Shown here: piece by piece, positions 536 to 40,023 of the stretch
How positions within the stretch are numbered: the stretch's first letter is position 1
Layout of the letters: each line of letters begins with the position of its first letter
Source of the DNA: an uncultured Myxococcales bacterium
GTDB taxonomy: Bacteria > Myxococcota_A > UBA9042
Assembly: GCA_903840165.1 (NCBI GenBank)
Contig: CAIMEY010000075.1
Location: 44,365-108,364 of the forward strand
Reading direction: 5' to 3'
DNA length: 64,000 nt
Program-made: the position numbers and the translations under genes
Notes under the pieces: generated by a model
Told to the model about the DNA's origin: nothing
The model's database searches: none
What the model saw: only the letters and a program-made list of their open reading frames with translations

Positions 536-2146
536 ATGGTTCGCACCTTTACCCCTGATTGGCTGGCCGATCAGCCCCAAGCTTTGGCGATGCTGCCACG
601 CGGCTACACCCAGCCGGCCGCGCGGGCCCATGCCGTGGCGACTGCGGCCAAGCGGCAGGTGCATCCAGGTGTTCTTGCTGCGATTGCAAGGACTTCACAA
701 ACGCTGCCTCCCCGGCCGGCGCGCGATGCCGCGCTGGCGCAGTTGAGCCAAGCGGGGACTGTGGCGGTGGTGACGGGTCAACAGCTCGGGCTGTTCCTCG
801 GGCCTCTGTACACGCTGTACAAAGCGGTGAGCGCCATCGTCAATGCCCGCCAATTGACTGCGGAAACAGGTGTCGCGGCCGTCGCGGTTTTCTGGCTGCA
901 GAATGAAGACCATGACGCAGCCGAGATCGACCACACCTACGCCCCCGGTGCCGGCGAGGCCAGGCGATTCTCCGTGCAACTGCCTGGAACTGGGCGCGAA
1001 TCGATATCGGAGCTCGAATTACCGGCCGAAACGGACAGCGTTCTTGCCCTTTTGCACCAGCATCTCCAAGGGTTGCCCGATGCCGAAGTGGTTCATGCTT
1101 GGCTGTCGAGGTCCTGGCAGTCCCACCGTGACCTAACAGAGGCTTTCACCAGTAGTTTGGATGCCTTGCTGGGCGATTCGGGGCTCTTGTTTCTAGACCC
1201 TCGCGCGCCCGAACTGGCAGAGGCGGCCGGCGATTTTCATAAGCGCTGCCTGGATTTTGCCGAGCCGTTGGCGATGGTTTTGCAGGAGCGGGCGACCGCA
1301 TTGGCCGAGCAAGGCTGGGACGTGCCAGTGCACATTCGGCCGGCCGCGCCTCTGTTCTTTTACGCGCCGGATGGTGAGCAAGGGCCGCGTTTTCGCCTTC
1401 AAGCTCAAGGGGATGCCTACGCGCTGGTGGGCGATGCCGCGCAACGGACGATTCAGGCACACGCCCTGCGCCAAGCCTTGGACGTCCACCCGCGGGCGTT
1501 TTCGACTTCCGTGCTGTCGCGACCGCTGTGGCAGGACACCTTGCTGCCGTGCGTGGCCTATGTCGGTGGGCCAGGAGAAATTGCGTATTTTTCCCAACTT
1601 GCGCCGGCTTACGCCCTTCTCGGACTACCGATGCCGTTGCTGGTGCCTCGGTCGCGGTGGCTCATCACCGATGCGCCGACCCAGACGGCGCTGCAACAGG
1701 CGGGGGTCAGCTTGGCCGATCTGGCTGCGGGCCCGGCGCGTTGGACAGCCTCTTTGGCAGGGCTGGCAGGGTCTCAGCAGCAAACCATGGACGCCCTGCA
1801 GGCCCGGTTGACCGAGCCGTTCGTGCACGAACTGAGCCTGTTGGAAGGAGAAATGGCTGCTGCGGACCCGGGCCTCACCAAGGCCGTCAAGCAGACGCAG
1901 GCCGCTGTGGCAGAAAGCGTGGCCCGTCTGCTGGGCAAATGGCAGCGGGTGCTGGCGTCCCAGCAATCGGCGGAGTTGGCTAAGCGCATGAGATGGCGAA
2001 CGATCTTGACGCCTGATGGAGCGCCTCAAGAGCGCGTGCATGGCCTGCCTTGGTTCGCGGCGCGTTACGGACTGCAGCACGTGGTCGCCAGTGTGCTTGA
2101 ACAAACGGTGCCATTTTCCGGTGAAATCAAGGAGTTGTTTCTGTGA
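536..2146 (+). CDS. bshC: Bacillithiol biosynthesis cysteine-adding enzyme BshC
   Basis: VVTGQQLGLFLGPLYTLYKAVSAI and AVFWLQNEDHDAAEIDH closely match the B. subtilis BshC blocks (GGQQAGLLTGPLYTIHKI / VFWIAGEDHDMDEINH); length 536 aa is typical; stop overlaps bshA start (ATGA). Confidence 0.75.
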   Translation: MVRTFTPDWLADQPQALAMLPRGYTQPAARAHAVATAAKRQVHPGVLAAIARTSQTLPPRPARDAALAQLSQAGTVAVVTGQQLGLFLGPLYTLYKAVSAIVNARQLTAETGVAAVAVFWLQNEDHDAAEIDHTYAPGAGEARRFSVQLPGTGRESISELELPAETDSVLALLHQHLQGLPDAEVVHAWLSRSWQSHRDLTEAFTSSLDALLGDSGLLFLDPRAPELAEAAGDFHKRCLDFAEPLAMVLQERATALAEQGWDVPVHIRPAAPLFFYAPDGEQGPRFRLQAQGDAYALVGDAAQRTIQAHALRQALDVHPRAFSTSVLSRPLWQDTLLPCVAYVGGPGEIAYFSQLAPAYALLGLPMPLLVPRSRWLITDAPTQTALQQAGVSLADLAAGPARWTASLAGLAGSQQQTMDALQARLTEPFVHELSLLEGEMAAADPGLTKAVKQTQAAVAESVARLLGKWQRVLASQQSAELAKRMRWRTILTPDGAPQERVHGLPWFAARYGLQHVVASVLEQTVPFSGEIKELFL

Positions 2147-3324
2147 GTTCAGACTGTTGCAGCGCTGCTAGCCAGGGGCCTCATATCGGCCTGGTTGGGC
2201 TGCCCGGTTGGGGCGGAACGGGCGTTGTCGCCGCGGATTTGGCCTATGGTCTGGCGCGCGATCATATGCAAGTTAGCCTATTTGCATTGGAATCGCCGAC
2301 ACGTTTCCGAGCCCCGGACCCGCACCTAACCTTGTGCGGCGTCGACTTGGGCGACCACCCTGCGGCCAATGGTCTTGGGTTGTATCCCCTTGCTTTGGCA
2401 GGCAAAATCCTCCAACGCAGCCGCGATCAGCCCATCGATGTGCTGCACCTTCACTACGCCGTCCCGCACGTGGCCGCAGCGGTGCTGGTCAAGCAAGCAC
2501 TAGGGCAGGATTCCCCCAAGGTTATCCTAACTTTTCACGGCACCGATGCGACCGACCTCGCCGCCGACCCGCGCTATCAGCCCCTCTTGCGCAGCGGCGT
2601 TCTGGCGATGGATTTTTGTACGGGCCCCTCGCGGGCCTTGTGTGAAATAGCGCAAAATCATCTGCAGTTACCCAAAGAAGCCGCCTTGACGGTGGTCGCC
2701 AATGGCATTGACACCGACCGTTTCTGTCCGCCGCCACAGCGAAATCGTCAAGTGTTGCGAAGTCTTTTCCCGCACGCCGACGACAACTCGCCGATTCTGC
2801 TCCACGTCTCCAACCTGCGACCGGTCAAACGTCCTCAGGATTTGGCTGCGATCGCTGCCGCCGTACAGGCGCGGATTCCGTGTCGGTTGCTGGTCGTCGG
2901 CGATGGGCCGGGCCGGGCAAACCTCGAGCAATCCCTAGAAAATTCACCGCTGCAGGGCCGCGTCGCCTTCCTTGGTAACCGCGCCGATTGCGTCGACCTG
3001 CTGCAACACGCCGACCTCTTGCTGCTGCCCAGTGCCTCAGAAGGTTTTGGTTTGGCGGCGTTGGAGGCTTTGGCCTGCGGCTTGCCAGTGGTGGCCTCGC
3101 GCACCTGTGGTCTGCCCGAAGTCGTGCAAGACGGCGTGACAGGCCGGCTGCATCCGGTCGGCGATGTGGCCATGGCAGCTGCCTATATTGTTGATTTGCT
3201 TGTAAATTCTGCGGAACATGCCCGCATGTCGGCCCTGGCGCGGCGCGACGCGGTCCAGCGCTTTGACCACCAGCAGGTCGTGGCGCGCTGGCAGGGAATT
3301 TACCGAAGCTTGATGGCTAACTAG
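2143..3324 (+). CDS. bshA: GT4 glycosyltransferase, BshA-like (N-acetyl-alpha-D-glucosaminyl L-malate synthase)
   Basis: N-terminal Gly-rich loop GLPGWGGTGVVAADLAYGLA, block DVLHLHYAVPHV (BshA: DVLHVHYAIPHA), GT4 C-terminal EGFGLAALEALACGLPVV; translationally coupled to bshC. Confidence 0.7.
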   Translation: MSSDCCSAASQGPHIGLVGLPGWGGTGVVAADLAYGLARDHMQVSLFALESPTRFRAPDPHLTLCGVDLGDHPAANGLGLYPLALAGKILQRSRDQPIDVLHLHYAVPHVAAAVLVKQALGQDSPKVILTFHGTDATDLAADPRYQPLLRSGVLAMDFCTGPSRALCEIAQNHLQLPKEAALTVVANGIDTDRFCPPPQRNRQVLRSLFPHADDNSPILLHVSNLRPVKRPQDLAAIAAAVQARIPCRLLVVGDGPGRANLEQSLENSPLQGRVAFLGNRADCVDLLQHADLLLLPSASEGFGLAALEALACGLPVVASRTCGLPEVVQDGVTGRLHPVGDVAMAAAYIVDLLVNSAEHARMSALARRDAVQRFDHQQVVARWQGIYRSLMAN

Positions 3325-6176: not shown

Positions 6177-7550
6177 TCAGCGCGCCGACGAGCCTGGGCT
6201 TTGGCAAACGGGTACCGCCCGATCGACCTGCTGCAACGCCTTGATCTGCTGCTGCAACTGGTCGATCTGCCTCTGCTGATTCTGAATCGTCGCCACGGCC
6301 ATCGATAAATAGCCATACAAATCGACCATGTCCCGCTCGGGGTCGACAGCAGGGCTGTGCGGGTCATCGTCAATGATAAAGCCCAGGTGGCGCCGGCCCT
6401 GGGGCCCCGAGGCGGTGTATCGGTAGCTCGCCAGACGGGTTTGCAGCAACTGGTTGCTCAGTTGGTCTTGGTCCGATGGCGTCAAGTACTGAATTTCCGT
6501 CTTGTACTGCGCCTTGGAGATCGGGCAGCCCTTCTGCTTGGGATCGCTACTGGCGCAAATCAGCATTTGGCCGCAGCCGAGTTTGGGGTCGCATTGGGTG
6601 CCGGCGGCGCTGCAGCTGTCGCCCGTCTTTTCGCTGGTGCACAGCGGGATGCCCGGGGTGGCTTGCCACTGGGTGCCGCAGACCGGATTGCCGCAAGTCA
6701 CATAGTAATTCAGCCCTGTTGCCGGTGCACAGGCGCTGCTACTGGCAACGTTGGTGCCGCTACCCTGGGCGGAGCAGGCGTTGCCGTACGTCTTGCCGTC
6801 GCAGCCACAGACAGGCGCGTACTCGGCCGTACAAGTTTCTGGTTTTGCGACGCAATTTCCTGCCCCGCCGCAGCTTAAGTCGCTAATCATGCAGAACTTG
6901 CCGGTGCCGCAGGTGTCCTTGCCGCCGACCACACAACTTGTTGAAATGCTGCATGAACCTGGGTGATTGATGGTGGTGCCGCCGGCGTTGGCCATGCAAT
7001 CGTTGCAGTAGGCCTTGCCGTCACAGCCGCACAGCATGTCCGCCGCGCAATTTTGCGGGCACATCTGCGGCATGGCGGTGCAAGTTCCTGTTGCGACGCC
7101 ACAACTGCCCGTGGCACCCGCGCAATACTGGTTGGCGGCGCATTGACCGGGGATGCCGACTTGGCAGGCCCCCGCGACTTTGCAACTCCCTGCCTTTGCG
7201 AGGTTTACCCCGGACATCGCTGCCACGCAGGCCGTTGCATAGTCCTGGCCATCGCAGCCGCAGTTGGTCAAGCTGGTGCTAGGAGAACAACCGCTTGGAA
7301 TTACCTTGCATTCACCGTTACCGGCGCAGTCGCCGAGGGCCTTGGCACAAAACTGACCGGCGCTGCAGTCGGTGTTGACCTTGCAATTGCCTGTCACTTC
7401 GCTAGGCGCGGCGTCGGTGTCGCCCAGGGTGCCTGTGTCCCCGCCGTTGCTGCTGGCGTCGGCGGTGCCGCTGCTGTCGTCAAAGACGCAACTGGTCAGA
7501 ACCAAGGTTGAAGAAATGCCCAACAATATCAAATGATTCTTCAGTCTCAC
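6177..7550 (-). CDS. Lipoprotein with three or four Kazal-like Cys-rich modules and a C-terminal intramolecular-chaperone (peptidase S74-like) domain
   Basis: GTG start at 7550 after strong RBS GAGGGAGG; lipoprotein signal VRLKNHLILLGISSTLVLTSC; Kazal signatures CGCDGQDYATAC, CGCDGKAYCNDC, YAPVCGCDGKTYGNAC; C-terminus SKAQYKTEIQYL...RRHLGFIIDDD...LYGYLSMAVATIQNQQRQIDQLQQQIKALQ resembles the endosialidase/tail-fibre chaperone domain (SDxRLKTNI...HIGFIAQEV...coiled coil). Confidence 0.65.
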   Translation of the reverse strand: MRLKNHLILLGISSTLVLTSCVFDDSSGTADASSNGGDTGTLGDTDAAPSEVTGNCKVNTDCSAGQFCAKALGDCAGNGECKVIPSGCSPSTSLTNCGCDGQDYATACVAAMSGVNLAKAGSCKVAGACQVGIPGQCAANQYCAGATGSCGVATGTCTAMPQMCPQNCAADMLCGCDGKAYCNDCMANAGGTTINHPGSCSISTSCVVGGKDTCGTGKFCMISDLSCGGAGNCVAKPETCTAEYAPVCGCDGKTYGNACSAQGSGTNVASSSACAPATGLNYYVTCGNPVCGTQWQATPGIPLCTSEKTGDSCSAAGTQCDPKLGCGQMLICASSDPKQKGCPISKAQYKTEIQYLTPSDQDQLSNQLLQTRLASYRYTASGPQGRRHLGFIIDDDPHSPAVDPERDMVDLYGYLSMAVATIQNQQRQIDQLQQQIKALQQVDRAVPVCQSPGSSAR

Positions 7551-7688
7551 AGCAACCTCCCTCAAACGTCGCGGGCAATCATGCCTGCTCATCCAGTGAA
7601 GGATTCAACGACCGAAAAGTCAAGGCACTTTGTTGCTGGATCAGGGCCTCAAGCCGCACGGGGCGATAGGCCGGCAGCAGGCCCGGGC

Positions 7689-7757
7689 GCCCGCCCTTGA
7701 AACTAGAACCAAACACCGTACCTCTAACCCGCTAGGAACTTCGGGTTAGAGGCACTA
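7689..7757 (-). repeat. Copy 1 of an ~65-80 nt conserved element abutting a stop codon; contains 10-bp perfect inverted repeat cctctaaccc/gggttagagg
   Basis: 86% identical to 39950-40023 (cccttgaaactagaa..aggaacttcgggttagagg..ctag); its final CTA is the TAG stop (minus strand) of the reductase gene; on the gene strand the hairpin is followed by a U-richer tail guuugguucuaguuucaaggg. Confidence 0.6.
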
Positions 7758-8816
7758 GATGCCCGGGCCTTTGAGCGCCAACTCCCGCAGCAAATCGGGA
7801 TGGTTGTGCCGCAGCCACTCAATCGTGTCGGCCAAGGTCTGCCGCGCCGGGCGAGGCTGATACCCCAGTTCTTTCGCGGCGTAACGGGACTTCAGGCCCC
7901 ACCAGCGGCTGCCCATTTCAATGACCACCGGGTCTGGCAGTGGCGAATGGGCACCGGGCCACAAAGCGGTCGCGCGGGCGGCAGCGGAAGCCAATGCATG
8001 GGCAGCTCGCGTCGGTAGCACGCGCGTTGGTGCGATAACGCCTGAAACTTGTTGGCAAAGTTGAAAGAAATCGCCAACGCTCGTTTCGGTGCCGGGCAGG
8101 TGATAGATGGGCCGGCCGGCGGGATGGTCGATGGCGCGCACGATGGCGGTCGCGGCGTCACGAATGTCCGTGAAGTTCATGCCGCCGGACAGCACAAATG
8201 GCAGCTTGTGCCTCAAGAATTTCAAGACGTTGCCTGAGGAGCGGAACTTATGGTCGCCTGGGCCGAGTAAGACCGGCGGACGAATCACCGTCATCGCCAC
8301 ACCCAATTCCACTGCTAGCGCGCGGGCTTGGCGCTCGGCCTTGATCTTGGAGTCGTAGTAAGGCCAACGGCGCGCCAACTTGTCGCAATAAGGCGCATCC
8401 TCATCGGCTTGGTCCCGCGGATTGGTAAAGCAACCCACCGTCCCTGATGTTGAGACAAAGACAAGGCGGCACCGGGTCTTAGCTGCCAAACGCACCATCC
8501 GCAGCGTGCCGCCAATGTTGGTGTCGTACACGTGCTGGGTATTGCGGCGGCTGTGCTGGACCACAGCGGCGAGGTGGAAAATCCCTACAAGACCCTGCAG
8601 TTGAGGGGTATTGGTCCAGCCTTGGTCGTCGGTAACGCTGCCCTGGATGACTTGGACGTCGGGGAAATCCTTAGTCCAATCCATCCGTTGCCACTCGGCC
8701 GGGTGACGCACCAACGCCAAGGGCCTCAAGTCCGGACGCAAAACGCCAAGCGCTGTCAGCACATGGCGTCCAAGAAAGCCGGTCGCGCCGGTCACGAGCA
8801 CTGTCGGTTTGGTCAT
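7755..8816 (-). CDS. NAD(P)-dependent epimerase/dehydratase-family (extended SDR) reductase; candidate acyl/alkyl-DHAP reductase
   Basis: MTKPTVLVTGATGFLGRHVL Rossmann motif at the chosen ATG (8816); last gene of the AGPS / FAR-GNPAT operon. The functional assignment is inferred from operon context only. Confidence 0.6.
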   Translation of the reverse strand: MTKPTVLVTGATGFLGRHVLTALGVLRPDLRPLALVRHPAEWQRMDWTKDFPDVQVIQGSVTDDQGWTNTPQLQGLVGIFHLAAVVQHSRRNTQHVYDTNIGGTLRMVRLAAKTRCRLVFVSTSGTVGCFTNPRDQADEDAPYCDKLARRWPYYDSKIKAERQARALAVELGVAMTVIRPPVLLGPGDHKFRSSGNVLKFLRHKLPFVLSGGMNFTDIRDAATAIVRAIDHPAGRPIYHLPGTETSVGDFFQLCQQVSGVIAPTRVLPTRAAHALASAAARATALWPGAHSPLPDPVVIEMGSRWWGLKSRYAAKELGYQPRPARQTLADTIEWLRHNHPDLLRELALKGPGI

Positions 8817-8906
8817 GGTCTTGCTGGTCCTGGGGCGCTGGAGCTGCACGGACGAGGCCCTCTGGCGCATGGGCAGATGCACAAAATCCCTTGATTTTGC
8901 AGAGGA

Positions 8907-11639
8907 CTACGCCTGGGCGGTACGCATGGGCCGTCCGGCAGCCGCACGTTCTTCCGGCCAAACGCAGGCTTGCTGGTAGGCGGGCAACGTCGCGTGGGCC
9001 GGACCCCAGGCCACTGCGCCCTGGCGGCGGTCCAAGACCAGAATTTCTCGCTGGGCGAGGTCTTCTAAGGCCGCCTGGAGATTGGGCAAATGCGCGCCCG
9101 GGGCTTCAGTCAACAGGCTGCGGGCCGAGGCATGGCGCGGCGCAAAATCCGGCGAACCTAGGCGTTCGGCCACCGTCAGGTAGTCGCGGGCAATCGGTTC
9201 GAAAATTGCGCGAAGCAGGCCACGCAGTCGCGCATCACGCAGTTCCAACTCGCCGACTTCGCGCTCCGGGGCGTGAAAGCCGTGGTATTGCGTGTGGTGC
9301 TGCACCGCCGGATGGTCTGGCCACAGGGCGCGCGCCTCGGGGTAAAACAGGTGCAACCACTGGTAACGCATACACATTTCGCTGACGTCATCCATGTCGT
9401 CCTCGATGTCCAGGGGACTGTCGATGACTAGGCCGCCCCGCCGTTCCAGCGCATCGCGCAACCACTGTTCGCTGACGCCGGGCAGGCGATTGTGGTGTAA
9501 AAACGCGCGCAAGTGGTGAGTCGTCGTCGCTGTTTTGTCCTGCAGTTCGGCCATGACATCCATGGCTACGCTGCGAGCGTCGGCCTCGGGCGTCATCACC
9601 ACGGGATCGCCACAGGCAATGTGCACTCGGCCCAGATTCACTTGTCCTTGCGCCATCTTCGCTGACCATGCCAGCAGGGCCCTCAGCTGCATGTCCGGCC
9701 GCGCATGGCCACGCAATTCGCGCAGCAGGGAGGCCTCCTCCGGCATCCGGTCGTAGGTCAGGCTAATCGGCAGAATCGTAAACGTTTTCCCGGTTCCTTG
9801 CAGGCAGCGCAGGAGCCCATGGCGCGGCTGGAGAAATTGTCGACTGCGGCTGCGGGCGCCCTCGATGAAGAACTGAATGGTCTGGCCCTGCCCAACCAAG
9901 CCATGAACATGATTGGTTAATTCCTCGTCAATCTTGCCTTGGCCCCGCCGCAAATAGAAGGCCTGCGTCTTCTTGAACAGTTCGCCAAGAATCGGAATCT
10001 TGCTGAACTCTTCGGCCGCGGCGATGTGCGGAATAGCAATACCCAGGTCAGGCCGGGCAAAGAACAGGTAACTGCACAGCAAAAAGTCCATGTAGCTGCG
10101 GTGCGACGGCACAATGACGTGCAGGCTGCCCGGCGCGGTCTGGGCCACGGCGCGCTCAAAGCTCAGGCGATCAAAGGTGACTTCGGACGTGCACTGTCGC
10201 AGTGCCTTGCGCACGGCCAAGGCAAAGGTGCGGATGGCCCAGTTGCCATCGGGCTGGCCCAAGGCGAACTGCAGATCGCCGAGCTGTCCTGGTAACGCCC
10301 CAGCATCTTTGTGTTTTCGGCCCGCCAGGCTCATCTGCGTTTCATCGCGCTTGTACAGGTGGCGGTAAATGCCGCGGCAGCACAGTTCGATGTAGTCCAG
10401 CTTACGGAACAGCGGGTCTTGTAGGGGCTGGGAGGCATCAAACGCAAACGTGTTGCTGGTGAAGTAGGGAAAAGCTTCGTTGATATACTTCAGTTTTTCG
10501 GCAAGTTTGACCACACGTCGCGCCTGCTTGGCTTGGCCGGTGACCTGCATCGCCGTGCGCGCCAGCCGGGTAGGCAGGCGGTGAAGACGCAGTTCGTGGG
10601 CCTTAAACGTCGCGGAAGGATTGAGAATATAGCGGAGCTCGGGCTTGCGGTCGATGGGATACCGGGCAAAGAAGGAGACGATGGCGTCGGCTGATTCGCG
10701 GATGCCGCCGCAGTTCGCCAGACCCGCAACGGCGTGGCGGATTCCCCATTGAATTTGCGGGCCAAAGGCAGCGTCGAGGACACGGTCGCTAACGACGTCG
10801 CAGGGCACAATATCGAGCTTGGCGGCGCTGTGGCCGGTCATCACCCGCATATGCCCAGAACCAATCAGCAAAACGAAGCCGGCAAAGGCGGCGGCACTGT
10901 CGATCCAGCCCGGAAAGGGATGCTGCCAAGTCGCTGAAACAATGGAAGGACGCACGATGCACAGGGGCACGTCGCCGCGATGGCGCTCGAGCAGGTGCTC
11001 GGTGATGCACTTGGTGAAGGTGTAGGTATTGGGATGCCCCGTCTCAGCCAGTAAAACCTTTTCATCGGCGCGGCCTTGCAAGATGGCCTCGTAGACTTCC
11101 TGCGGGTCGCGCACCATGGGCGCGAGGACTTCCTCCACGAACTGCGGCGCCGTTGGGCCTCCCTCATGGCGATGGGGCGTCACGTAGGCCGTTGAAACGC
11201 TGACCATTTGCTTGAGCTTGCCGCAGGTCTTGGCCAGAGTCAGCACGTTGAGCGCGCTGCTAATATTGGCCGCGGCGGCCTCGGCGATAGGCAGGTCGAA
11301 CTCGACGGAGGCGGCGCAGTGGACGACGTGCGTTACTTTCTCGCGTAGCAGCTTCAGATCATTGCGGTTAAGGCCGCATTCCGCTTGGCTGAGTTCCCCC
11401 GTGGCAACCACGCAGCGCTTGACCCAATCGTCTGGAAGTAGGCGAAAAGCCGGCGATTCGGCGGTTTGTGCAAAGCGCTCTTGCGGCGTCTGCCCCTTCT
11501 TGGGGCGAACTAGGACATAGACGGCTTCAATGCCTAACTCTAGGCGTCGACGCATCAATTCCGCCAGAACGACTTTGCCGACAAAGCCAGTAGCGCCGGT
11601 CAGAAGGACGTGGGCATCGCGTACGGGTGCGAATTTCAT
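8907..11639 (-). CDS. Bifunctional fatty acyl-CoA reductase (FAR1-like) / dihydroxyacetone-phosphate acyltransferase (GNPAT-like) fusion
   Basis: N-terminus LLTGATGFVGKVVLAELM, YVLVRPKKGQTPQER, VSTAY, PNTYTFTK, VRPSIVSATWQHPFPGWID match animal FAR1 almost block for block; C-terminus carries the GPAT/DHAPAT motifs HRSYMDFLL and FFIEGARSRS (human GNPAT: HRSYIDFLM, FFLEGTRSRS); ATGA overlap with upstream AGPS. Confidence 0.85.
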   Translation of the reverse strand: MKFAPVRDAHVLLTGATGFVGKVVLAELMRRRLELGIEAVYVLVRPKKGQTPQERFAQTAESPAFRLLPDDWVKRCVVATGELSQAECGLNRNDLKLLREKVTHVVHCAASVEFDLPIAEAAAANISSALNVLTLAKTCGKLKQMVSVSTAYVTPHRHEGGPTAPQFVEEVLAPMVRDPQEVYEAILQGRADEKVLLAETGHPNTYTFTKCITEHLLERHRGDVPLCIVRPSIVSATWQHPFPGWIDSAAAFAGFVLLIGSGHMRVMTGHSAAKLDIVPCDVVSDRVLDAAFGPQIQWGIRHAVAGLANCGGIRESADAIVSFFARYPIDRKPELRYILNPSATFKAHELRLHRLPTRLARTAMQVTGQAKQARRVVKLAEKLKYINEAFPYFTSNTFAFDASQPLQDPLFRKLDYIELCCRGIYRHLYKRDETQMSLAGRKHKDAGALPGQLGDLQFALGQPDGNWAIRTFALAVRKALRQCTSEVTFDRLSFERAVAQTAPGSLHVIVPSHRSYMDFLLCSYLFFARPDLGIAIPHIAAAEEFSKIPILGELFKKTQAFYLRRGQGKIDEELTNHVHGLVGQGQTIQFFIEGARSRSRQFLQPRHGLLRCLQGTGKTFTILPISLTYDRMPEEASLLRELRGHARPDMQLRALLAWSAKMAQGQVNLGRVHIACGDPVVMTPEADARSVAMDVMAELQDKTATTTHHLRAFLHHNRLPGVSEQWLRDALERRGGLVIDSPLDIEDDMDDVSEMCMRYQWLHLFYPEARALWPDHPAVQHHTQYHGFHAPEREVGELELRDARLRGLLRAIFEPIARDYLTVAERLGSPDFAPRHASARSLLTEAPGAHLPNLQAALEDLAQREILVLDRRQGAVAWGPAHATLPAYQQACVWPEERAAAGRPMRTAQA

Positions 11640-13657
11640 ACCAAACCTCCGCCGCTAGCGGCGCTCGATGGCTTGCTTCGGCTGCGCGAGGGGGCCACAC
11701 GGGCCGGTGCGCTGGCAACAGAAGTCTCAGAAGAGTTTGAATTAGCAGGGAGAACGTCGTCGGCAGTGGCCTGGTTGCCACAGCCGAAAATGTTCGTGGG
11801 GTCCACAGCCTGCTTGAGCTGGGCCTGCCACTTGAGCAGCGCCGGCGAGGCGATTTCCGGCAAGAATCGTTGACGAATCTTGCCAATGCCGTGGTGGTGC
11901 GAGAGTGAGCCGCCCTGGGCCAGCACTTCCTGGCGGGCCGCCAGCTCAATCTCGGAGTAAACCTCGGAAGGATGGGCAACGCCCTTGTAATAGAAGGCGA
12001 AATAGAAGTAGACGCAACAACCTGTGTCGTAGATTTGCGTGACGCGACAAGTGACAAACGGCTTGCCCGGCAGACCGCGGGCGGCGTGCTCTGTATATAG
12101 CCGTTTTTTCACGTTTTCGCACAGGGCAATGCATTGGCTCCAGGGCACGCTGGTCTCAAACGACTCAGCGATGACCCAGTGATCCATCACGAAATCGCGG
12201 ATATAGGCGATGCCGAACGTCAGTTGGTAGCCACGCGCGCCATTTTCGCCGCCAGCGGGCAGACCGCCGTGCTTTTTCGCAATGCCGTAGAGCAGTTCCT
12301 CCTGCTGCTGCACTTCGCGCTTGTCGCCCTCAAACACCAGGGTACAAGCCGTCATCTTGCCGGGGTCAAAGCCCTGAAGCTGCGTGACAAAAGCCTTTTC
12401 AATCTTGGACTTGTGCACTTTCCAGCCCTTGTTGGCGGGCTTGAGCGCCTGGCTGAACTGGAACTGCATGTTGTCCACCAACCGCGCACTGGCGGGCCAG
12501 CGGCCGGTCTGGGTGAGCTCGTACATAAAGGCGACGCCGCGCTCAAAATCAGGAAAGATCACTGAGCCATAGCGTTGAACCTCGGGCAGCGGGAACAGCT
12601 TGACGACGGCGCTGGTAATGATGCCCAACTTGCCTTCGGAGCCGAACAGCCACAGGCGCGGGTCGATGCCGACGGACTCGCGCGGGGCGGCCTGGCTGCG
12701 GGTGAGGGTGCCGGCGGCGGTGACCACGGTCATGTCGAGGACGACGTCTTCGATATTGCCGTATTTGTTCTTCTTCATGCCGCTGGCGTGGGTGGCGATC
12801 CAGCCGCCCATGGTCGAGAACTCGACGCTGTCCGGCTCGTGGCCCAGCGTGAACCCGTGTTCGGCGAGCTGGGTCATCAGGTGGCGACCGACCGCGCCGG
12901 CTTCAATGCACGCCATGCGGTTGACGGGGTCGATCCACAAAATCCGATTCATTTTGCCCATGTCCATCGACACGATGCAGCGGTTTTCGTGGTCGGGGCA
13001 GCGCAGCGCGTCGGTCACATTGGTGCCACCGCCGTAGGGGATGAGGACGACGTTGTGCTTGGCCGCGGCTTGGACCAGACGCTCGACTTGGCCTTGATCG
13101 CTGGGCCACACCACAAGGTCGGGAATACGCCCGATTTTTCCGTGGTTGATCGCCCACATTTCTTCTTGGGTATGGCCGTGGCCGCGGCGCAAGCGGTGGC
13201 GACCGTCGACCGACCAAGCCTCATTGCTTAGGAAAGTCTTGATTTCTTCGAGAAATTCATCGCTCAAAACCGGATCGGGTAACACGGGCGGAAACTGCGC
13301 GGGGTTGACGTCGTCCGGCGGCATATCGGCCTCCATGACGTCACGGATCCATGGCAAAAGATTGGGCAATGGCTCGCCACACAGGCTGTAGCGGCTGCCG
13401 GTGAGGACCACGCTGCTGTCGGCACGGGCCTCAAAGCGCGTGTCGGCAAAGCCCCAGGTGGAGTCGCTTTCCGTTTGGTCGTCGCTGATGGTCAAAGGCG
13501 GCGGAACAAATCGTGTTTCCGTGCCATTGGTGTGGATGTTGCCCGGGGCTCCTGCGGGGGCACCTTGCAGGGTTTGGCGCAACTGACGCGCACCAGCCAA
13601 GATCTTGCCACCGACCGCAAGGGCCGGGCCGATATCAAAGGATGCGAACTTACTCAT
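11636..13657 (-). CDS. Alkyl-dihydroxyacetone-phosphate synthase (AGPS; FAD-linked oxidase family) with low-complexity C-terminal tail
   Basis: FAD-binding PCMH-type blocks (VVLIPYGGGTNVTDAL, KKNKYGNIEDVVLDMTVV, LWLFGSEGKLGIITSAVVKL) and C-terminal HHHGIG characteristic of AGPS; first gene of the three-gene ether-lipid operon. Confidence 0.85.
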   Translation of the reverse strand: MSKFASFDIGPALAVGGKILAGARQLRQTLQGAPAGAPGNIHTNGTETRFVPPPLTISDDQTESDSTWGFADTRFEARADSSVVLTGSRYSLCGEPLPNLLPWIRDVMEADMPPDDVNPAQFPPVLPDPVLSDEFLEEIKTFLSNEAWSVDGRHRLRRGHGHTQEEMWAINHGKIGRIPDLVVWPSDQGQVERLVQAAAKHNVVLIPYGGGTNVTDALRCPDHENRCIVSMDMGKMNRILWIDPVNRMACIEAGAVGRHLMTQLAEHGFTLGHEPDSVEFSTMGGWIATHASGMKKNKYGNIEDVVLDMTVVTAAGTLTRSQAAPRESVGIDPRLWLFGSEGKLGIITSAVVKLFPLPEVQRYGSVIFPDFERGVAFMYELTQTGRWPASARLVDNMQFQFSQALKPANKGWKVHKSKIEKAFVTQLQGFDPGKMTACTLVFEGDKREVQQQEELLYGIAKKHGGLPAGGENGARGYQLTFGIAYIRDFVMDHWVIAESFETSVPWSQCIALCENVKKRLYTEHAARGLPGKPFVTCRVTQIYDTGCCVYFYFAFYYKGVAHPSEVYSEIELAARQEVLAQGGSLSHHHGIGKIRQRFLPEIASPALLKWQAQLKQAVDPTNIFGCGNQATADDVLPANSNSSETSVASAPARVAPSRSRSKPSSAASGGGLV

Positions 13658-13975: not shown

Positions 13976-14854
13976 TCAAGGCTGAGAACGGGCCGGTGCT
14001 GCCAAGGCCGCAGCGCTCGCAATGGGCGGATCGTCGGTTGCCGGATAGATGCTGGTAATTTCAAGGAGTTGCTTGTGAATGCGCCCATTGCTCGCCAGTG
14101 TGCTGGCCGCGAAGACTTGGTGGGCTTGGCCCTGCATGTCGGTGACTTGGCCCCCAGCTGCCGCGAGGATCGCGCACCCGGCCGTCAAATCCCAAGGCTG
14201 CAGGCCTGGTTCGTAGAAGCCATCGAGGCGACCCGCCGCCAATTCGCACAGGTCCAGCGCCGCCGAACCGCCGCGCCGCACGCAGTGGGCCCGGTTGAGC
14301 GCGCGGCCAAGCCACAGGAGAATCTGCCCCAGGCGCTCGCGTCGATCGTAGGGAAAGCCTGTAGCAATCAAGGCTTTACTGATATCGCCTACCTCAGAGA
14401 CCTGCAGGCGCATGCCGTTGCAAGTCGCCGCAATCCCTTGGCCACCGACGAAAATCTCGCGACGGGCTGGCGCTAGTACCACGCCAAGGACTGGCTGTCC
14501 CAAGTGCAGCAGCCCAATGGACACGCAGAAATTGAGGTGGCTGTGGGCGAAATTCGTTGTCCCATCCAGGGGATCAATGGCCCAGGTGAACGGGATCTCG
14601 GCGACGCGTTGGGCAAGGGCCCGGGCACCATCGCGACCGTCCGCTTCTTCGGCGAGAAAGGTGTCCTGAGGGAAAGCTGCGCGTAATTCTGAGAGAATTG
14701 CTCGCTCTGACTGGCGATCTGCCACAGTCACCAGATCGATCGGCGATTTCTCTTCAATTGCCGTGAGTTTGCCGTAATGCGACATCAGCACCGCACCGGC
14801 CTGTTCGGCAGCCCGGATGGCGATTTTCAGTCGAGATTCAAGTGCTTGCTTCAT
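13976..14854 (-). CDS. Inositol monophosphatase family protein (SuhB/ImpA-like)
   Basis: Motifs FLAEEADG, WAIDPLDGTTNFAHS, metal-binding D residues; ATG at 14854 has GAAGG RBS and avoids overlap with upstream gene (alternative ATG at 14899). Confidence 0.75.
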   Translation of the reverse strand: MKQALESRLKIAIRAAEQAGAVLMSHYGKLTAIEEKSPIDLVTVADRQSERAILSELRAAFPQDTFLAEEADGRDGARALAQRVAEIPFTWAIDPLDGTTNFAHSHLNFCVSIGLLHLGQPVLGVVLAPARREIFVGGQGIAATCNGMRLQVSEVGDISKALIATGFPYDRRERLGQILLWLGRALNRAHCVRRGGSAALDLCELAAGRLDGFYEPGLQPWDLTAGCAILAAAGGQVTDMQGQAHQVFAASTLASNGRIHKQLLEITSIYPATDDPPIASAAALAAPARSQP

Positions 14855-14879
14855 GATCGCCTTCTGTTGCTGCCCCTGC

Positions 14880-15530
14880 CTACTGGACCGGTTGGCCACT
14901 GAGCAAAGCGTGCAGCCGCGGCACTAGATTGGCCAGGGCGCCGTCGCCTTTGACCGAACCTGAAATTCGCCTATCGGTTCCATGCCCTTGGTCATCGGGC
15001 ATCACGAACAGTGGGACCAAATGGGTGTCGTAGCCGGCGGCGATCAGGCGGTCCTTGTCGGCGTCCCAGTCAAAATCGACTAGGACGAGATCGGGAAATT
15101 CGCCTTGTAAAATACCTTGTTCAGCCGCGGCGTGGAATCGTTTACACGGCTCGCACCACGGCGCTCCAACATAGACCAGCAGGGACTCTTTGGGACCTAA
15201 CCTAAGGCGCAATTGCTTCAATTGTTGAGCAACCTCGCCTGCTTGCGGGTGAACAAAGCGCGGACCGACCGTAGCGGGGGCCGGCGTGGGCGCGATCGCG
15301 GGCAGCGAGGTCGTCGCCGACGGTGTTGGTAAAGCTGTCTTTTGTATTTGAACTACAGGTGGTTGGCGCTCTTTCGCCGCCGGCGGATGCCGATCGCAAG
15401 CCAGCAGGGTGGTCAAGCTCAGCCCCGTGAGCCAGCGCGCTCCTTGAGTCCACTGCCGGCGCGTTGCAGCGCCAGAGGCTTGGGGCCGATGCAGCGGTTG
15501 TTCAAGCAATTTCAAGACGTTTTCCATCAT
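14880..15530 (-). CDS. Thioredoxin-fold lipoprotein (TlpA/thiol-disulfide oxidoreductase-like)
   Basis: Only the C-terminal ~215 codons of the 500-aa ORF are protein-like: lipobox LTTLLAC, then VYVGAPWCEPCKRF (WCxxC thioredoxin motif). Start set at ATG 15530; the remaining upstream ORF is Arg-rich noise. Confidence 0.5.
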   Translation of the reverse strand: MMENVLKLLEQPLHRPQASGAATRRQWTQGARWLTGLSLTTLLACDRHPPAAKERQPPVVQIQKTALPTPSATTSLPAIAPTPAPATVGPRFVHPQAGEVAQQLKQLRLRLGPKESLLVYVGAPWCEPCKRFHAAAEQGILQGEFPDLVLVDFDWDADKDRLIAAGYDTHLVPLFVMPDDQGHGTDRRISGSVKGDGALANLVPRLHALLSGQPVQ

Positions 15531-16514: not shown

Positions 16515-18974
16515 CTACTTCTTAGCGTTTCCTGACTTTTCTGGGCCGGACTTTGCCTGCTTGGCCGGGGCAGGCTTGGCTGGCGCTTTGCCCGGCGGCG
16601 GGGGCGGCGGCATCTTGAGCGGTTTTCCATCGGCACCCACGGCGTCACGCGGCGGAATTGGCTTGCCCTCCGTGACGGCTTTGGCCACTTCTTGGCGACG
16701 GTCTTCTTCCTTTTTCTCCTGATCTTCCAAGGCTTTGATGGCCGCCATCTTCTTGGCGACGTAAGCCTCTTCCTCTTTGCGTTTGCGCTCCTCGGCGGAC
16801 ACATCGACGGTGCCGTCCGACGCCTTTTTGACCCAATCGTCGTCCTCAACCAACCGGTATTGCCCCATCTTTTCAAGGTCTAAGGCCTGCGTATGCTCGC
16901 CAATCGCCACCGGTTCATCGGCCGTGACCGGGGCAGCTGTGGCACCTAGGGCCGCCATCCGCGCCAACTCTTTGTCCAGATTGGAAATATCCAGGACGGC
17001 AGTGCCTTCGCCTTGGGCCTGCTTGAGCCGCGCCGCCCAATCCAGGTCCCGTTTTTGCTGCACATCGAGGTCCAGGACCCACCCGACCATGTGCGGATAA
17101 CTGCCGATTTCTTCCCATGATTCCAACGGGAAATGCGTCCGCCACAGCAGCGTTACCAGGCCCGCTTCGACCTCAACCACCACGGTGTCCAGGGGCATGT
17201 CGCGTCGCTCAACCCCGCGCCCACGGTCCAGCTCCCCTTGTAACACCCGACCGGGCAAGCGAAAAAGCAGCTCGCCATTCTTGGTGAGGTTGCTCAGCTG
17301 CACTTCTTCATCGCCGACGACTTCGGGCCACTGCATCACCGGCGTCGCGCTGTTGAAGTAGGCCGGCCTCATGCCTTGGGGTGGAGATTGCTTATCCAGT
17401 TCACGCAGTTGGCGAACGTCGTCGGGCTTTTCTAGGTCCAAGCTGCGCTTGTAGGCGTCGATCTGCGCAGGCCACAACCCAAGGGCCGAAGGCATGGGCC
17501 CGGCGTAGCCCACGCGCGGTTGGGCTTGGCGCGGATAGGTCGAAAAGCCAGCTGGCAAAGGGACTTTGTCCAGCGCCATGACGTCACGGACCACATCGCC
17601 TGGCGTCAGCGGCACCAGCGGATCTTCGATTTGCGGCAGCTCAGTGCGCGCGATCACCGCAGGATGATTGCTGATCAGAAAACCGCGGCCAAAGGGATTG
17701 GTCGGGCAGGTCAGTTGAGGAAACTCAGCCAAAGCTTCGTTTTCTTTCTTCTTTTTCTCGGCAGCCAACTTCTCGCGGCGGTCCTTGTTGCGCAGGTCAT
17801 CGGCCCCGATCTCCTGGCGCAGGTTGACATCCCATTGCACCGGCACCGGCTCGTCGTCTTCTGGCATCGCATCAAGGACTTGCGTGCCATCGTTTTGCTG
17901 GACCGCCTCCCGCGCGCGTTTGCGGGCCGCCTTGGCCAATTCCTCGTGACGCTGGGCCTGCTCAGCCGCCGATTGCTCAAGCTCTTTGCTGAGTTGCGCG
18001 TCGTCCAAGATGGCCACTTGATCGTCCACCTCGATCCAATCGCCGAGCGCATTCTGGCGCAGTCGACGGTTGCCGTCTTGCTTGCCCTCAGCCGCCAGTT
18101 GAGCAGCAAGATCATCGGCTTGCTGCTTCTCGCGGATCGCCCGGGCCATGTCGGCCAAGCGCTGTTCGTCGAGTTCTTCCAGGTTGAGGACCGCGGTGCC
18201 GTCCTTAGAGGCGGCCTTGTCCCAAAGACGCACGCCTTCGTCATCAAACCCTTCAGAACCATCGCCGAATTTAAGTTTTTCGTCCTTCTCTTTGTTCTTG
18301 CGCCGCGCCGCCTCGCCTAGGGACTCAAAGAGCTCTTTGTCCTTAGCTTCCTTCGCTTTTTTCTCCTCCTCGGCCTTGCGCGCTGCCTCTGCGTCCGCGT
18401 TCTTGGCGTCGTCCTGCTTTTTCTCTTCATCCATCTGTGCTTGCACGGCGCGCTGCAGCTTGAGCACCTCGTCATCTGGAACCGCCCACGTCGTGCCGCC
18501 ATAGGCCAGCGTGAGACTCAGGGGCAAGTCCTTGATCGGCTCGGGCTCGCTAAAGCGCGGCGGCTGTGGCTCAAATTGGTTATCCTTGGCCTTTTTTGCC
18601 GGTGTATACAGCAGCTTACGCGGGCCTAGGATGTGCAACTGGCGCTTGCGGTCGCCGATGCGCACGCCGCACTGCCAAGCCGATTGTGCTTTGCCACCAG
18701 GGGCATAGGTCTTGCCGATGACAATGACGTCGACATGGGCCTTTTCCGGCACCAATTCCGCTTCCAGGGTCGGCGGCGCCACGTCCGGCTTGCCCTCGTC
18801 GCAGCGGTCCTGATCGAGAAAGGGGGGCTGCTCTTCGTCGGGTAGTGGCTGTAATTCTACGTCATCTTTGGCGATTTTGTAGGTTCGTCGCGCCAAAACA
18901 TGAATGGCCAAGGTGCCGTCGCAGCGTTCCGCCGGCAAGAGGTGCACCCAGTATCCTTTGCGAAGATCGGCCAT
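16515..18974 (-). CDS. DUF2169-like N-terminal domain protein with long Lys/Glu-rich coiled-coil region and Pro/Lys-rich C-terminal tail
   Basis: N-terminus EKAHVDVIVIGKTYAPGGKAQSAWQCGVRIGDRKRQLHILGPRKL resembles the DUF2169 core (TDVLLLGHAYAPGG...L.V.G.R.W); central EEKKAKEAKDKE/KRKEEEAYVAKKMAAIKALEDQEKKEED repeats; ends PPPPPPGKAPAKPAPAKQAKSG. Confidence 0.6.
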   Translation of the reverse strand: MADLRKGYWVHLLPAERCDGTLAIHVLARRTYKIAKDDVELQPLPDEEQPPFLDQDRCDEGKPDVAPPTLEAELVPEKAHVDVIVIGKTYAPGGKAQSAWQCGVRIGDRKRQLHILGPRKLLYTPAKKAKDNQFEPQPPRFSEPEPIKDLPLSLTLAYGGTTWAVPDDEVLKLQRAVQAQMDEEKKQDDAKNADAEAARKAEEEKKAKEAKDKELFESLGEAARRKNKEKDEKLKFGDGSEGFDDEGVRLWDKAASKDGTAVLNLEELDEQRLADMARAIREKQQADDLAAQLAAEGKQDGNRRLRQNALGDWIEVDDQVAILDDAQLSKELEQSAAEQAQRHEELAKAARKRAREAVQQNDGTQVLDAMPEDDEPVPVQWDVNLRQEIGADDLRNKDRREKLAAEKKKKENEALAEFPQLTCPTNPFGRGFLISNHPAVIARTELPQIEDPLVPLTPGDVVRDVMALDKVPLPAGFSTYPRQAQPRVGYAGPMPSALGLWPAQIDAYKRSLDLEKPDDVRQLRELDKQSPPQGMRPAYFNSATPVMQWPEVVGDEEVQLSNLTKNGELLFRLPGRVLQGELDRGRGVERRDMPLDTVVVEVEAGLVTLLWRTHFPLESWEEIGSYPHMVGWVLDLDVQQKRDLDWAARLKQAQGEGTAVLDISNLDKELARMAALGATAAPVTADEPVAIGEHTQALDLEKMGQYRLVEDDDWVKKASDGTVDVSAEERKRKEEEAYVAKKMAAIKALEDQEKKEEDRRQEVAKAVTEGKPIPPRDAVGADGKPLKMPPPPPPGKAPAKPAPAKQAKSGPEKSGNAKK

Positions 18975-19057
18975 GGCCTGGTCAAACTAGCCTTGGCGGA
19001 CGGAACTGGCAAGCGCGTCTGCAGGCGGGTATGCTGGCACCGCCTTTGGAGGTCCTC

Positions 19058-20875
19058 ATGGTCAGCCGTGCTATTTGCGTTATCCTGCTGCATTTACTGG
19101 TTATTCTTGGCATTGCGTCACCGGCCATGGCCGCGGACTGGCAGGCCCAGGCGACCGAGTTCTTGCAGGCGTACAATGCGAAATATGTAGGCTTAGTTAC
19201 GGTCGCCAACGCTGCGGAGTGGGCGGCAAGCACCAACGTTTCCAAGCAGACGGAAGACAAACGCACGCAGGCCGACGAAGCGCTGGCGATCTTTCGCGGC
19301 GATGTCAAAATCATCCAACAAACTAAGGAGTTGCTTGGCCACGCTGCTGCGCTGACGCCTAGTCAGGTCAGGCAGTTGCAAAAGGTGCTGCTCGGTGCGG
19401 CACAAAATCCTGCGACAATTCCAAAGGTTGTCAAAGAGCGGATCGAGGCGGAAAGCCGGCAGGCTTCGGTTCAAGACGGCTTTGTCTATTGCGCGCAAGC
19501 CAAGGCCGCCGATGGCAGTTGCGCAAAGCCGCTGATCGCCAATGATTTGGATGAGGTACTGCGCAATAGCCGCGACCTTAGCCAGCGGTTGCAAACGTGG
19601 AACCTCAGCAAGGAAATCGGCAAGCCCCTCAAGCCGGGCCTAGAGAAGCTGCAAAAGCTGCGCAATCAGATCGCGCGCGAGATGGGCTACTCGTCGTTTT
19701 TTGCCTTGCAGGTTGCGGAGTACGACATGACCGTGCCCGAGATGCTGGGCCTGCTCGATGGTCTGCTTGACGACATGCAGCCCCTGTACGACGCCCTGCA
19801 CACGTGGACTGCCCGAGAACTGGCGCGGCGTTACAGCGCGCAGGTGCCCAAGGGCTCTATCCCCGCGCATTGGTTGACCAATCGTTGGGCGCAGAACTGG
19901 GTGGCCTTGGCGCCCGGTGTGGACCTCGACCACTACTTTGCCGATCGCAAGCCCGAATGGATCGTTCAACAAGCTGAAAACTTTTACGTTTCGATGGGCA
20001 TGCCTAAGCTGCCTGCCACGTTTTGGCAGAAGTCGGACTTGTATCCGGTGCCGGCTGGCGAAAAGCGCAATAAAAACAGCCATGCTTCGGCGTGGCACAT
20101 GGACCTGGACCAGGACGTGCGGTCGCTGATGAGCGTGCAGCCCGACAGCGAATGGTTCTCCACCGCGCACCACGAATTAGGGCATATTTACTATTACTTG
20201 AGCTACAGTCGGCCCCAAGTCCCCGTGCTGTTGCGCGAAGGGGCCAACCGCGCTTTTCATGAAGGCATTGGCGAGTTGATCAGCATCGCCGCTACGCAGC
20301 TGCCCTACCTACAAGCCCAAGGGATTATTCCCAAAGATGCCAAGATCGACCAGAACGCTTGGCTGCTCAATGAGGCGCTCGAGCACACCGTGTCGTTTAT
20401 TCCCTGGTCGGCTGGCGTCATGACGCGCTTTGAATACGAGCTCTATGAGCACGACTTGCCGGCCGACAAGTGGCAGCAAACCTGGTGGAATCTTGTGGAA
20501 AAATACCAGAAGGTTTCCCCGCCCTCGGCCGATCGTCGCGGCGATCCGCTGGCTTGCGACGCGTGCACAAAGACGCATATCAATGATGACCCGGCGCAAT
20601 ACTACGACTACGCCATCGCCACCGTGCTGAAGTACCAACTGCACGCCTACATCGCCAAGAAGATCCTCAAGCAAGACCCGCACTTCTGCAATTACTACGG
20701 CAACAAGCAGGTGGGCGATTTCTTGCGGCACATTCTCGAACAAGGGGCGACCCGCGACTGGCGCGTGGTGCTGCAGGAAGCGACGGGCGAGCCCCTGTCG
20801 ACGCGGGCGATGGTCGAATACTTCGAGCCGCTGGGCCGTTGGTTAGAGGCGGAAAATGCCAAGGCTGCTAAGTAG
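19058..20875 (+). CDS. Peptidase M2 (angiotensin-converting-enzyme-like peptidyl-dipeptidase), secreted
   Basis: Zinc site HHELGHIYYY...HEGIGELIS matches ACE HHEMGHIQY...HEAIGD; ATG at 19058 follows GGAGG and starts signal peptide MVSRAICVILLHLLVILGIASPAMAADW. Confidence 0.8.
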   Translation: MVSRAICVILLHLLVILGIASPAMAADWQAQATEFLQAYNAKYVGLVTVANAAEWAASTNVSKQTEDKRTQADEALAIFRGDVKIIQQTKELLGHAAALTPSQVRQLQKVLLGAAQNPATIPKVVKERIEAESRQASVQDGFVYCAQAKAADGSCAKPLIANDLDEVLRNSRDLSQRLQTWNLSKEIGKPLKPGLEKLQKLRNQIAREMGYSSFFALQVAEYDMTVPEMLGLLDGLLDDMQPLYDALHTWTARELARRYSAQVPKGSIPAHWLTNRWAQNWVALAPGVDLDHYFADRKPEWIVQQAENFYVSMGMPKLPATFWQKSDLYPVPAGEKRNKNSHASAWHMDLDQDVRSLMSVQPDSEWFSTAHHELGHIYYYLSYSRPQVPVLLREGANRAFHEGIGELISIAATQLPYLQAQGIIPKDAKIDQNAWLLNEALEHTVSFIPWSAGVMTRFEYELYEHDLPADKWQQTWWNLVEKYQKVSPPSADRRGDPLACDACTKTHINDDPAQYYDYAIATVLKYQLHAYIAKKILKQDPHFCNYYGNKQVGDFLRHILEQGATRDWRVVLQEATGEPLSTRAMVEYFEPLGRWLEAENAKAAK

Positions 20876-31689: not shown

Positions 31690-31835
31690 GGTTTCTAGCG
31701 ATCTGGGGCGATTGTGCCATGGTCCAGCGCTGGCTCCAGTGACGCAGGCCGGACCATGGCGCAGTCCATACCCGCAGAGTTTTGAGATTGATGAACGATT
31801 CCAGTTCGCTTGCTTAGGTAGATTTCGGGGCCTTG

Positions 31836-39949: not shown

Positions 39950-40023
39950 GCGGCGCGCCCCCTTGAAACTAGAAGCAAACGCAGTAGCTCGGACCCGCAA
40001 GGAACTTCGGGTTAGAGGTCCTA
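39950..40023 (-). repeat. Copy 2 of the ~65-80 nt element abutting a stop codon (degenerate hairpin arm)
   Basis: 86% identity to 7689-7757; its terminal CTA is again the TAG stop (minus strand) of the upstream gene (40021..42888); also sits 50 nt after the convergent helicase stop. Confidence 0.6.

Follow-up and report, generated by a model that had tools for sequence, protein, structure and literature searches.

Does an uncultured lake bacterium carry, in one short operon, the enzymes to make alkyl ether lipids by animal-type chemistry, and how would such an operon relate to those described in Myxococcus xanthus and in eukaryotes? Here, we describe a three-gene locus in a 64,000-nucleotide (nt) stretch of DNA from an uncultured Myxococcales bacterium (NCBI GenBank assembly GCA_903840165.1, contig CAIMEY010000075.1, positions 44,365 to 108,364 of the forward strand), hereafter the window, whose numbering is used unless another locus is named. 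The three genes lie on the minus strand in one direction, span positions 7755-13657 and encode AGPS, a fusion of a fatty-acyl-CoA reductase (FAR) with an acyltransferase (a protein type named FARAT), and an extended short-chain dehydrogenase/reductase (SDR) (Table 1). From sequence comparison, the locus is very probably an orthologue of the M. xanthus operon MXAN_1676-MXAN_1675-MXAN_1674, which would serve alkyl ether lipid synthesis by animal-type chemistry. An original prediction, made from the sequence letters of the window, had read AGPS, the FAR-acyltransferase fusion and a candidate ketoreductase as one ether-lipid operon; domain and residue evidence and the literature back this functional reading, and everything it said at sequence level about the three open reading frames (ORFs), their domains and their motifs was borne out. 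The translational coupling that it described between AGPS and the fusion is likewise present: the TGA stop of AGPS overlaps the ATG of FARAT as ATGA (11636-11639), with GGAGG 6 nt 5' of that ATG.

A scan of species-representative genomes gave 80 loci, against which four domains from the window were run by tblastn; taxon names given for these and other sequences are labels of metagenome-assembled genomes (MAGs), some of them perhaps mis-binned. Adjacent AGPS, FARAT and SDR genes were found in the same order in 31 loci, and because this order recurs in 31 independent genomes the three-gene locus is not a product of chance. An AGPS gene adjoins the fused FARAT gene in 43 of the 44 loci with room upstream (the remaining one, L041, has a split AGPS), and 32 of the 42 fused loci that extend far enough downstream have an SDR gene directly after FARAT. 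Labels of loci with the FARAT operon include Myxococcales, Cystobacter, Archangium, Bradymonadales, Sericytochromatia, Acidimicrobiia and Nitrospira, together with many Gemmatimonadota; Binatia-labelled loci have AGPS-FARAT and, where judgeable, no adjoining SDR. No further conserved neighbours of the operon were seen among the compared loci. The nearest species representative (L001), a MAG labelled Myxococcales from Lake Erken, has 61% FARAT identity and some flanking genes in common with the window.

AGPS (EC 2.5.1.26), an FAD enzyme, puts a fatty alcohol in place of the acyl group of 1-acyl-dihydroxyacetone phosphate (acyl-DHAP). The 673-aa product of the first gene matches Pfam FAD_binding_4 (E 6e-36) and FAD-oxidase_C (E 6e-40), an architecture common to AGPS and to D-lactate/glycolate dehydrogenase-type oxidases, and its top NCBIfam match is GlcD; were it such an oxidase, the cluster would be no ether-lipid module. 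The chance of this is negligible, as the GlcD match reaches 148 of the 568 bits set as its cut-off, whereas residues 66-628 give a full-length match to solved guinea-pig AGPS (4bby; E 1e-173, 582 bits, 47% identity over 561 aligned positions) that includes the AGPS-specific N-terminal domain. Among other solved structures, Dictyostelium AGPS (2uuu) scores 302 bits, while glycolate oxidase, the next family, and D-lactate dehydrogenases score at most 94 bits. These scores effectively refute a D-lactate/glycolate dehydrogenase identity, and the protein groups with AGPS, as had been predicted. Residues R392, Y550 and H587-H589 align with R419, Y578 and H615-617 of guinea-pig AGPS, whose Arg419, Tyr578 and His615-617 loop we take to be catalytic; the Y578F mutant entry 4bca departs from 4bby exactly at the Tyr578 column of the alignment. 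The N-terminal ~65 aa and an S/A/P-rich C-terminal stretch of ~45 aa are unconserved. By these sequence criteria, the 673-aa FAD enzyme is clearly an AGPS orthologue. Elsewhere, AGPS matches fall in two pieces in L041:6128-7920 (labelled Acidimicrobiia) and L048:6729-7921 (labelled Gemmatimonadales), which suggests a frameshift or pseudogene in these copies.

The 910-aa product of the second gene matches Pfam NAD_binding_4 at residues 13-285 (E 2e-62, 211 bits) and Acyltransferase at residues 507-627 (E 3e-18, 66 bits). It has 1194 homologues at E<=1e-10, the best 120 of which are all ~900 aa long and share both Pfam domains; the named ones are mostly from MAGs labelled Myxococcales, Myxococcota or Deltaproteobacteria. 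Four motifs are invariant in a 107-homologue alignment: GxxGxxG (here GATGFVGK), YxxxK (YTFTK), HxxxxD and FxEGxRSR. An AlphaFold2 model built from the same 107 members has two domains (predicted local distance difference test 94.5; predicted template modelling score, pTM, 0.91), for which the best Foldseek matches in the PDB, which holds no GNPAT structure, are rice fatty-acyl reductase DPW (7eoz) for the N-terminal half and human GPAT1 (8e4y) for the C-terminal half. In sequence searches the FAR half scores 95 bits against plant FAR 7eoz and 140-223 bits against the corresponding halves of eukaryotic FARATs (e.g. Balamuthia P0340), several of which were confirmed by name as a 1339-aa Balamuthia "dihydroxyacetone phosphate acyltransferase", a Pharyngomonas protein and other EukProt entries. 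The alignment with human FAR1 on which the original prediction drew was reproduced (30% over 408 aa, 181 bits) with an unverified FAR1 sequence. The product of this half would be an alcohol rather than an aldehyde. All that the high pTM shows is a defined packing of the two halves in the model, and channelling of substrate from FAR and acyltransferase to AGPS, which had also been proposed, is speculation.

Two further observations concern FARAT sequences elsewhere. In Gemmatimonadota-labelled homologues (L022, L025-L028, L030-L033, L042, L048, L049, L065) the tblastn matches end at about residue 765, so that these homologues may lack, or have in divergent form, the final ~140 residues of the C-terminal helical region seen in the Myxococcota type. 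At L084/L085:6001-9369, on metagenomic contigs of 31-65 kb, a 1122-aa FARAT with full Sterile and GPAT_C domains lies among mostly unannotated and ITFG1-like genes with no AGPS nearby, and its source is probably eukaryotic or otherwise non-bacterial.

The acyltransferase half raises the question of whether it is GNPAT-like or PlsB-like. The residues H513/D518 and E593/G594/R596/S597/R598 are invariant across the 107 homologues. HRSYMD and FFIEGARSRS, previously read as GNPAT motifs, are both present, but E. coli PlsB (from the MG1655 record) has HRSHMD and FVEGGRSR at the same places of the same alignment, so HxxxxD and FxEGxRSR are, as aligned, motifs of the whole GPAT/PlsB family and not GNPAT signatures. 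By BLASTP, the window protein scores 108 bits against primate GNPAT (32% over 235 aa) and 94 bits against E. coli PlsB (31% over 181 aa), while GNPAT and E. coli PlsB score 148 bits against each other (34% over 266 aa); the GNPAT set consists of database proteins so named, retrieved with a GNPAT probe and up to 100% identical to it. A profile of the bacterial acyltransferase core gives 120-163 bits for eukaryotic FARATs, 123-152 for GNPATs and 102-133 for PlsB-like proteins, and over 229 trimmed columns the bacterial cores are 31% identical to eukaryotic FARATs, 30% to GNPAT and 28% to the PlsB-like set. In a neighbour-joining tree of these columns (unrooted, no outgroup) bacterial FARATs form their own clade in 200 of 200 bootstraps. 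Eukaryotic GNPAT/FARAT cores are 37-40% identical to the PlsB-like set and 30-31% to bacterial FARATs, the PlsB-like set being biased in that its members were picked as best GNPAT matches.

On these data the acyltransferase half leans marginally to GNPAT/FARAT over PlsB. The original assignment to GNPAT rather than PlsB/PlsC thus stands in part: the protein is not PlsC-like and fails the PlsB cut-offs, and its grouping with GNPAT is weakly supported. A PlsB-like glycerol-3-phosphate (G3P) acyltransferase, with which the fusion would link the making of fatty alcohol to ordinary lysophosphatidate synthesis and leave AGPS to draw its acyl-DHAP from elsewhere or from a side activity, seems quite improbable. 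It would fit the best NCBIfam match, which is PlsB, the best solved matches, which are GPATs, the catalytic blocks common to this half and E. coli PlsB, and a core identity to PlsB-like proteins close to that to GNPAT; yet the scores against the NCBIfam PlsB equivalog models are far under their cut-offs (113 against 610 and 102 against 618 bits), the bacterial sequences are a clade of their own whose profile scores lean to eukaryotic FARAT and GNPAT, FARAT nearly always adjoins AGPS, whose only known substrate is acyl-DHAP, and eukaryotic FARATs with demonstrated DHAP acyltransferase activity have the same domain order. We infer that the acceptor is DHAP rather than G3P mainly from this context (AGPS needs acyl-DHAP) and from published phylogeny, not from the motifs.

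The published tree sets Myxococcia FARAT sequences beside eukaryotes, and eukaryotic FARAT and PEDS1 have been argued to come from Myxococcota (PMC13012113). In an exhaustive search of 1.84 billion representatives, the best 150 GNPAT relatives include eukaryotic FARATs and PlsB-like proteins and no bacterial FARAT of the window type. This absence, and the greater closeness of mammalian GNPAT and eukaryotic FARAT cores to PlsB-like proteins than to bacterial FARATs (P0129, L083:4044-6467, the window protein and P0246-P0394 compared), are hard to square with FARAT having simply passed en bloc from myxobacteria, though the PlsB-like set is biased and the tree unrooted; if, in a rooted maximum-likelihood tree, the bacterial acyltransferase clade proved no closer to GNPAT than PlsB-like enzymes are, an en-bloc myxobacterial origin would be complicated.

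The third protein matches Pfam Epimerase, 3Beta_HSD and NAD_binding_4, and is thus an extended SDR, with motifs GATGFLG (32-38), S145 and YYDSK (175-179) in the numbering of the long ORF. Its start is ambiguous (GTG 8882, ATG 8870 or ATG 8816); in homologues the alignment sets in at about residue 20-29 of the long ORF, public gene calls are 364 or 371 aa, and by this comparison 8870 or 8816 is probably the real start. Known acyl/alkyl-DHAP reductases (yeast Ayr1, mammalian DHRS7B and the Dictyostelium enzymes) are classical SDRs, and adh_short gave no Pfam match in the third protein, where only extended-SDR families were found. By family it is no member of the Ayr1/DHRS7B-PexRAP class, though it may have a similar function. 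Acyl/alkyl-DHAP reduction is reported to be done by SDRs, with rescue by the cognate yeast enzyme (PMC13256971).

Its linkage to AGPS and FARAT makes this SDR a candidate alkyl-DHAP reductase. We tentatively propose, as a possibility to be held with some reserve, that it is a dedicated bacterial 1-alkyl-DHAP reductase, a non-orthologous replacement of Ayr1/DHRS7B that completes a spread cassette of four activities; if so, genomes labelled Gemmatimonadota, Sericytochromatia, Acidimicrobiia and others would have acquired a self-contained ether-lipid cassette. The nearest solved relatives are Gox2253 oxidoreductase, ketoreductases, dihydroflavonol reductase and cinnamoyl-CoA reductase, carbonyl reductases whose kinship fits ketoreduction. 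It is somewhat unlikely that the third gene instead encodes a fatty-aldehyde reductase that finishes the work of FAR, or a lipid or sugar ketoreductase of unrelated function that travels with the operon, with a housekeeping enzyme reducing the C2 position. Such a role would agree with the extended rather than classical SDR class, with a best family match to HpnA that falls under its cut-off, with a NAD_binding_4 match resembling thioester and aldehyde reductases, and with the absence of the gene from the neighbourhood of FARAT in 8 of the 42 informative loci; it agrees less well with tight linkage in 32 of those loci under several phylum labels, with a pathway that needs exactly one more ketoreduction, and with the carbonyl-reductase relatives.

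In the proposed pathway, the FAR half would reduce a fatty acyl thioester to a fatty alcohol with NAD(P)H, the acyltransferase half would convert DHAP to 1-acyl-DHAP, AGPS, as a translationally coupled flavoenzyme, would exchange the acyl group for the alcohol to give 1-O-alkyl-DHAP, and the extended SDR would reduce the C2 ketone to yield 1-O-alkyl-glycerol-3-phosphate, which could then enter ordinary phospholipid or neutral-lipid assembly. No Pfam match to PEDS1/CarF was found in the scanned ORFs of the 64-kb window, and a PEDS1 probe (unverified sequence) gave no tblastn match in the window and clear homologues in five other loci. Because PEDS1/CarF is missing from these 64 kb, the locus alone predicts plasmanyl (alkyl) lipids and not plasmalogens. 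Being compact and coupled, the three-gene cassette would lend itself to reconstitution of alkyl ether lipid synthesis in E. coli and to resolving acceptor specificity and the identity of the reductase.

Variant arrangements occur elsewhere. PEDS1/CarF-like genes are found at L067:5660-6163, L039:5565-6083 and L077:3-503, also L046:9988-10596 and L066:3097-3586; they are 38-43% identical to human PEDS1 (unverified sequence) and in several loci labelled Gemmatimonadota lie directly upstream of AGPS-FARAT, an arrangement that has the look of a full set of plasmalogen genes. Of these loci, L039 and L067 have no adjoining SDR, and L077 ends too early to tell. In L045, L046, L053, L054, L058, L059 (labelled Spirochaetes), L050, L061 and L064, AGPS is followed by a stand-alone FAR, and neither a fused acyltransferase nor an SDR was detected within the flanks of these loci.

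Several points weigh against an orthologous, animal-type ether-lipid operon in the window. We know of no biochemical characterisation of any bacterial FARAT or MXAN_1674-type SDR. The domain-profile check called for by the original prediction found NAD_binding_4, Acyltransferase, FAD_binding_4 and FAD-oxidase_C, but Sterile, at residues 352-403 of the 910-aa protein, scores 19 bits against a cut-off of 35.4, and GPAT_C (PF19277) has no match there at E<0.01. The region of the weak Sterile match is covered by alignments to eukaryotic FARATs and to human FAR1 (the unverified sequence). GPAT_C is present in GNPAT and in the eukaryote-like FARAT P0347, which also has Sterile, and a divergent equivalent may exist in the 910-aa protein, as its modelled structure aligns with GPAT1 in Foldseek over 594 columns. 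To these are added the nearly equal core identities, which bear on DHAP specificity, the higher score of GNPAT with E. coli PlsB than with the window protein, and the eight informative loci that lack the SDR. Orthology to M. xanthus rests on relatives in MAGs labelled Cystobacter and Archangium (L012, L020) and on the literature description, the M. xanthus locus not being among the 80 loci from the species-representative scan. Finally, disruption of MXAN_1676 lowers alkyl ether lipids only slightly in M. xanthus, where the AGPS route is minor and ElbD is the main one (PMC9131029).

Table 1. Coordinates of the operon, its parts and adjoining elements in the window.
Feature	Position	Strand	Basis or detail
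AGPS orthologue ORF, 673 aa	11636..13657	-	ORF + Pfam
FARAT-type fusion ORF, 910 aa	8907..11639	-	ORF + Pfam
FAR half of FARAT, aa 1-440	10320..11639	-	Rossmann GATGFVGK (15-22), catalytic YTFTK (206-210), weak Sterile-like C-terminal part
Acyltransferase core of FARAT, aa 465-700	9540..10247	-	block I HRSYMD 513-518, II AFYLRR 560-565, III FFIEGARSRS 590-599, IV LPISLTYD 623-630
C-terminal helical region of FARAT, aa 701-910	8907..9539	-	conserved in Myxococcota-type homologues
Extended-SDR ORF, 375 aa at most	7755..8882	-	ORF + Pfam
Translational-coupling junction: GGAGG (11646-11650), 6-nt spacer, FARAT ATG (11637-11639)	11636..11650	-	direct sequence reading
Stem-loop, 14 bp, from SDR stop codon on	7718..7755	-	RNA fold -26.1 kcal/mol, z = -3.6
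Inositol-monophosphatase-family gene	13976-14899	-	Pfam Inositol_P E 7e-65; 318 nt upstream of AGPS

The hairpin 3' of the SDR gene is likely the end of the transcription unit; its loop of 10 nt and its weak run of T explain why a simple terminator scan missed it, and a simple promoter/terminator scan of the locus gave nothing useful. The inositol-monophosphatase-family gene might have been a fourth member of the operon, encoding a phosphatase; this was rejected, as the gene lies 318 nt away and is not conserved beside the operon elsewhere.

Proteins of the window occur in NCBI, ENA and Logan on lake-metagenome contigs of up to 289 kb, and the host is probably a freshwater member of Myxococcota. 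Just downstream of the operon (6177-7592, minus strand) is a gene for a 457-aa protein with a weak Kazal-type inhibitor match. A BshC-like gene (bacillithiol biosynthesis, E 2e-71) followed by an overlapping family-4 glycosyltransferase gene (536-3324, plus strand) may together serve bacillithiol synthesis in what is probably a myxobacterium. The window also encodes another animal-like enzyme, an angiotensin-converting-enzyme-like Peptidase_M2 protein (18845-20875, plus strand; E 1e-101), a 746-aa ORF with an unusual fusion of a urea transporter (UT, E 2e-35) to Peptidase_M23 (E 4e-16) (31833-34073, plus strand), and a 955-aa protein with seven Dictyostelium CTDC repeats (40021-42888, minus strand).

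The closest described system is the M. xanthus operon of MXAN_1676 (AGPS, ~42% identical to human AGPS according to a 2022 review, PMC9131029), MXAN_1675 (a FAR and GNPAT-like fusion) and MXAN_1674 (NAD epimerase/dehydratase) (PMC9131029; PMC13012113). As in the window, AGPS, FARAT and extended SDR are adjacent and co-directional, and MAGs labelled Cystobacter (L012) and Archangium (L020) are alike; the window copy is ~43-48% identical to these two in FARAT and ~56% in AGPS. It differs in belonging to an uncultured lake bacterium, with 61% GC and with no elb genes and no carF within 64 kb. The resemblance of the M. xanthus operon to eukaryotic enzymes was noted in 2006, according to PMC9131029. 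A 2026 PNAS paper depicts this operon (its Figure 1), names the fusion FARAT and, in a GTDB search for AGPS, GNPAT, FAR/FARAT and PEDS1, reports the individual genes in several phyla (PMC13012113). The operon architecture, the FARAT fusion and the link to eukaryotic plasmalogen synthesis are thus already known, and the window holds an ordinary new copy. The original prediction had set the locus apart from the M. xanthus route, which does not hold, as M. xanthus has this very operon alongside ElbD (PMC9131029; PMC13012113).

The ElbD route itself (elbA-E) resembles the window locus in yielding alkyl ether lipids and in having reductase and acyltransferase domains, but ElbD has acyl-CoA synthetase and acyl carrier protein domains and works without AGPS (PMC9131029), whereas the 910-aa protein has no AMP-binding or PP-binding Pfam match and is coupled to AGPS. 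Bacterial PlsB is of one family with the acyltransferase half of the 910-aa protein and has the same catalytic blocks, yet it is not fused to a FAR and differs in its flanking architecture. In the mammalian pathway (FAR1, GNPAT, AGPS and DHRS7B/PexRAP) the chemistry would be the same as that predicted for the window, with AGPS 47% identical in the guinea pig; animals have FAR and GNPAT as separate proteins and a classical SDR as reductase, in contrast to the extended one of the window. Eukaryotic FARATs (Tetrahymena TtFARAT, Dictyostelium, Balamuthia P0340 and Pharyngomonas P0326) have, like the window protein, an N-terminal FAR and a C-terminal DHAP acyltransferase in one polypeptide, but are 1000-1400 aa long, form no operon with AGPS and have acyltransferase cores ~31% identical to the window type. 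They are reported to be peroxisomal (PMC13012113), and the Tetrahymena enzyme, the only FARAT in which both fatty alcohol formation and DHAP acylation are known, has been shown to be bifunctional, according to the citations of Dittrich-Domergue 2014 (PMC13012113 among them).

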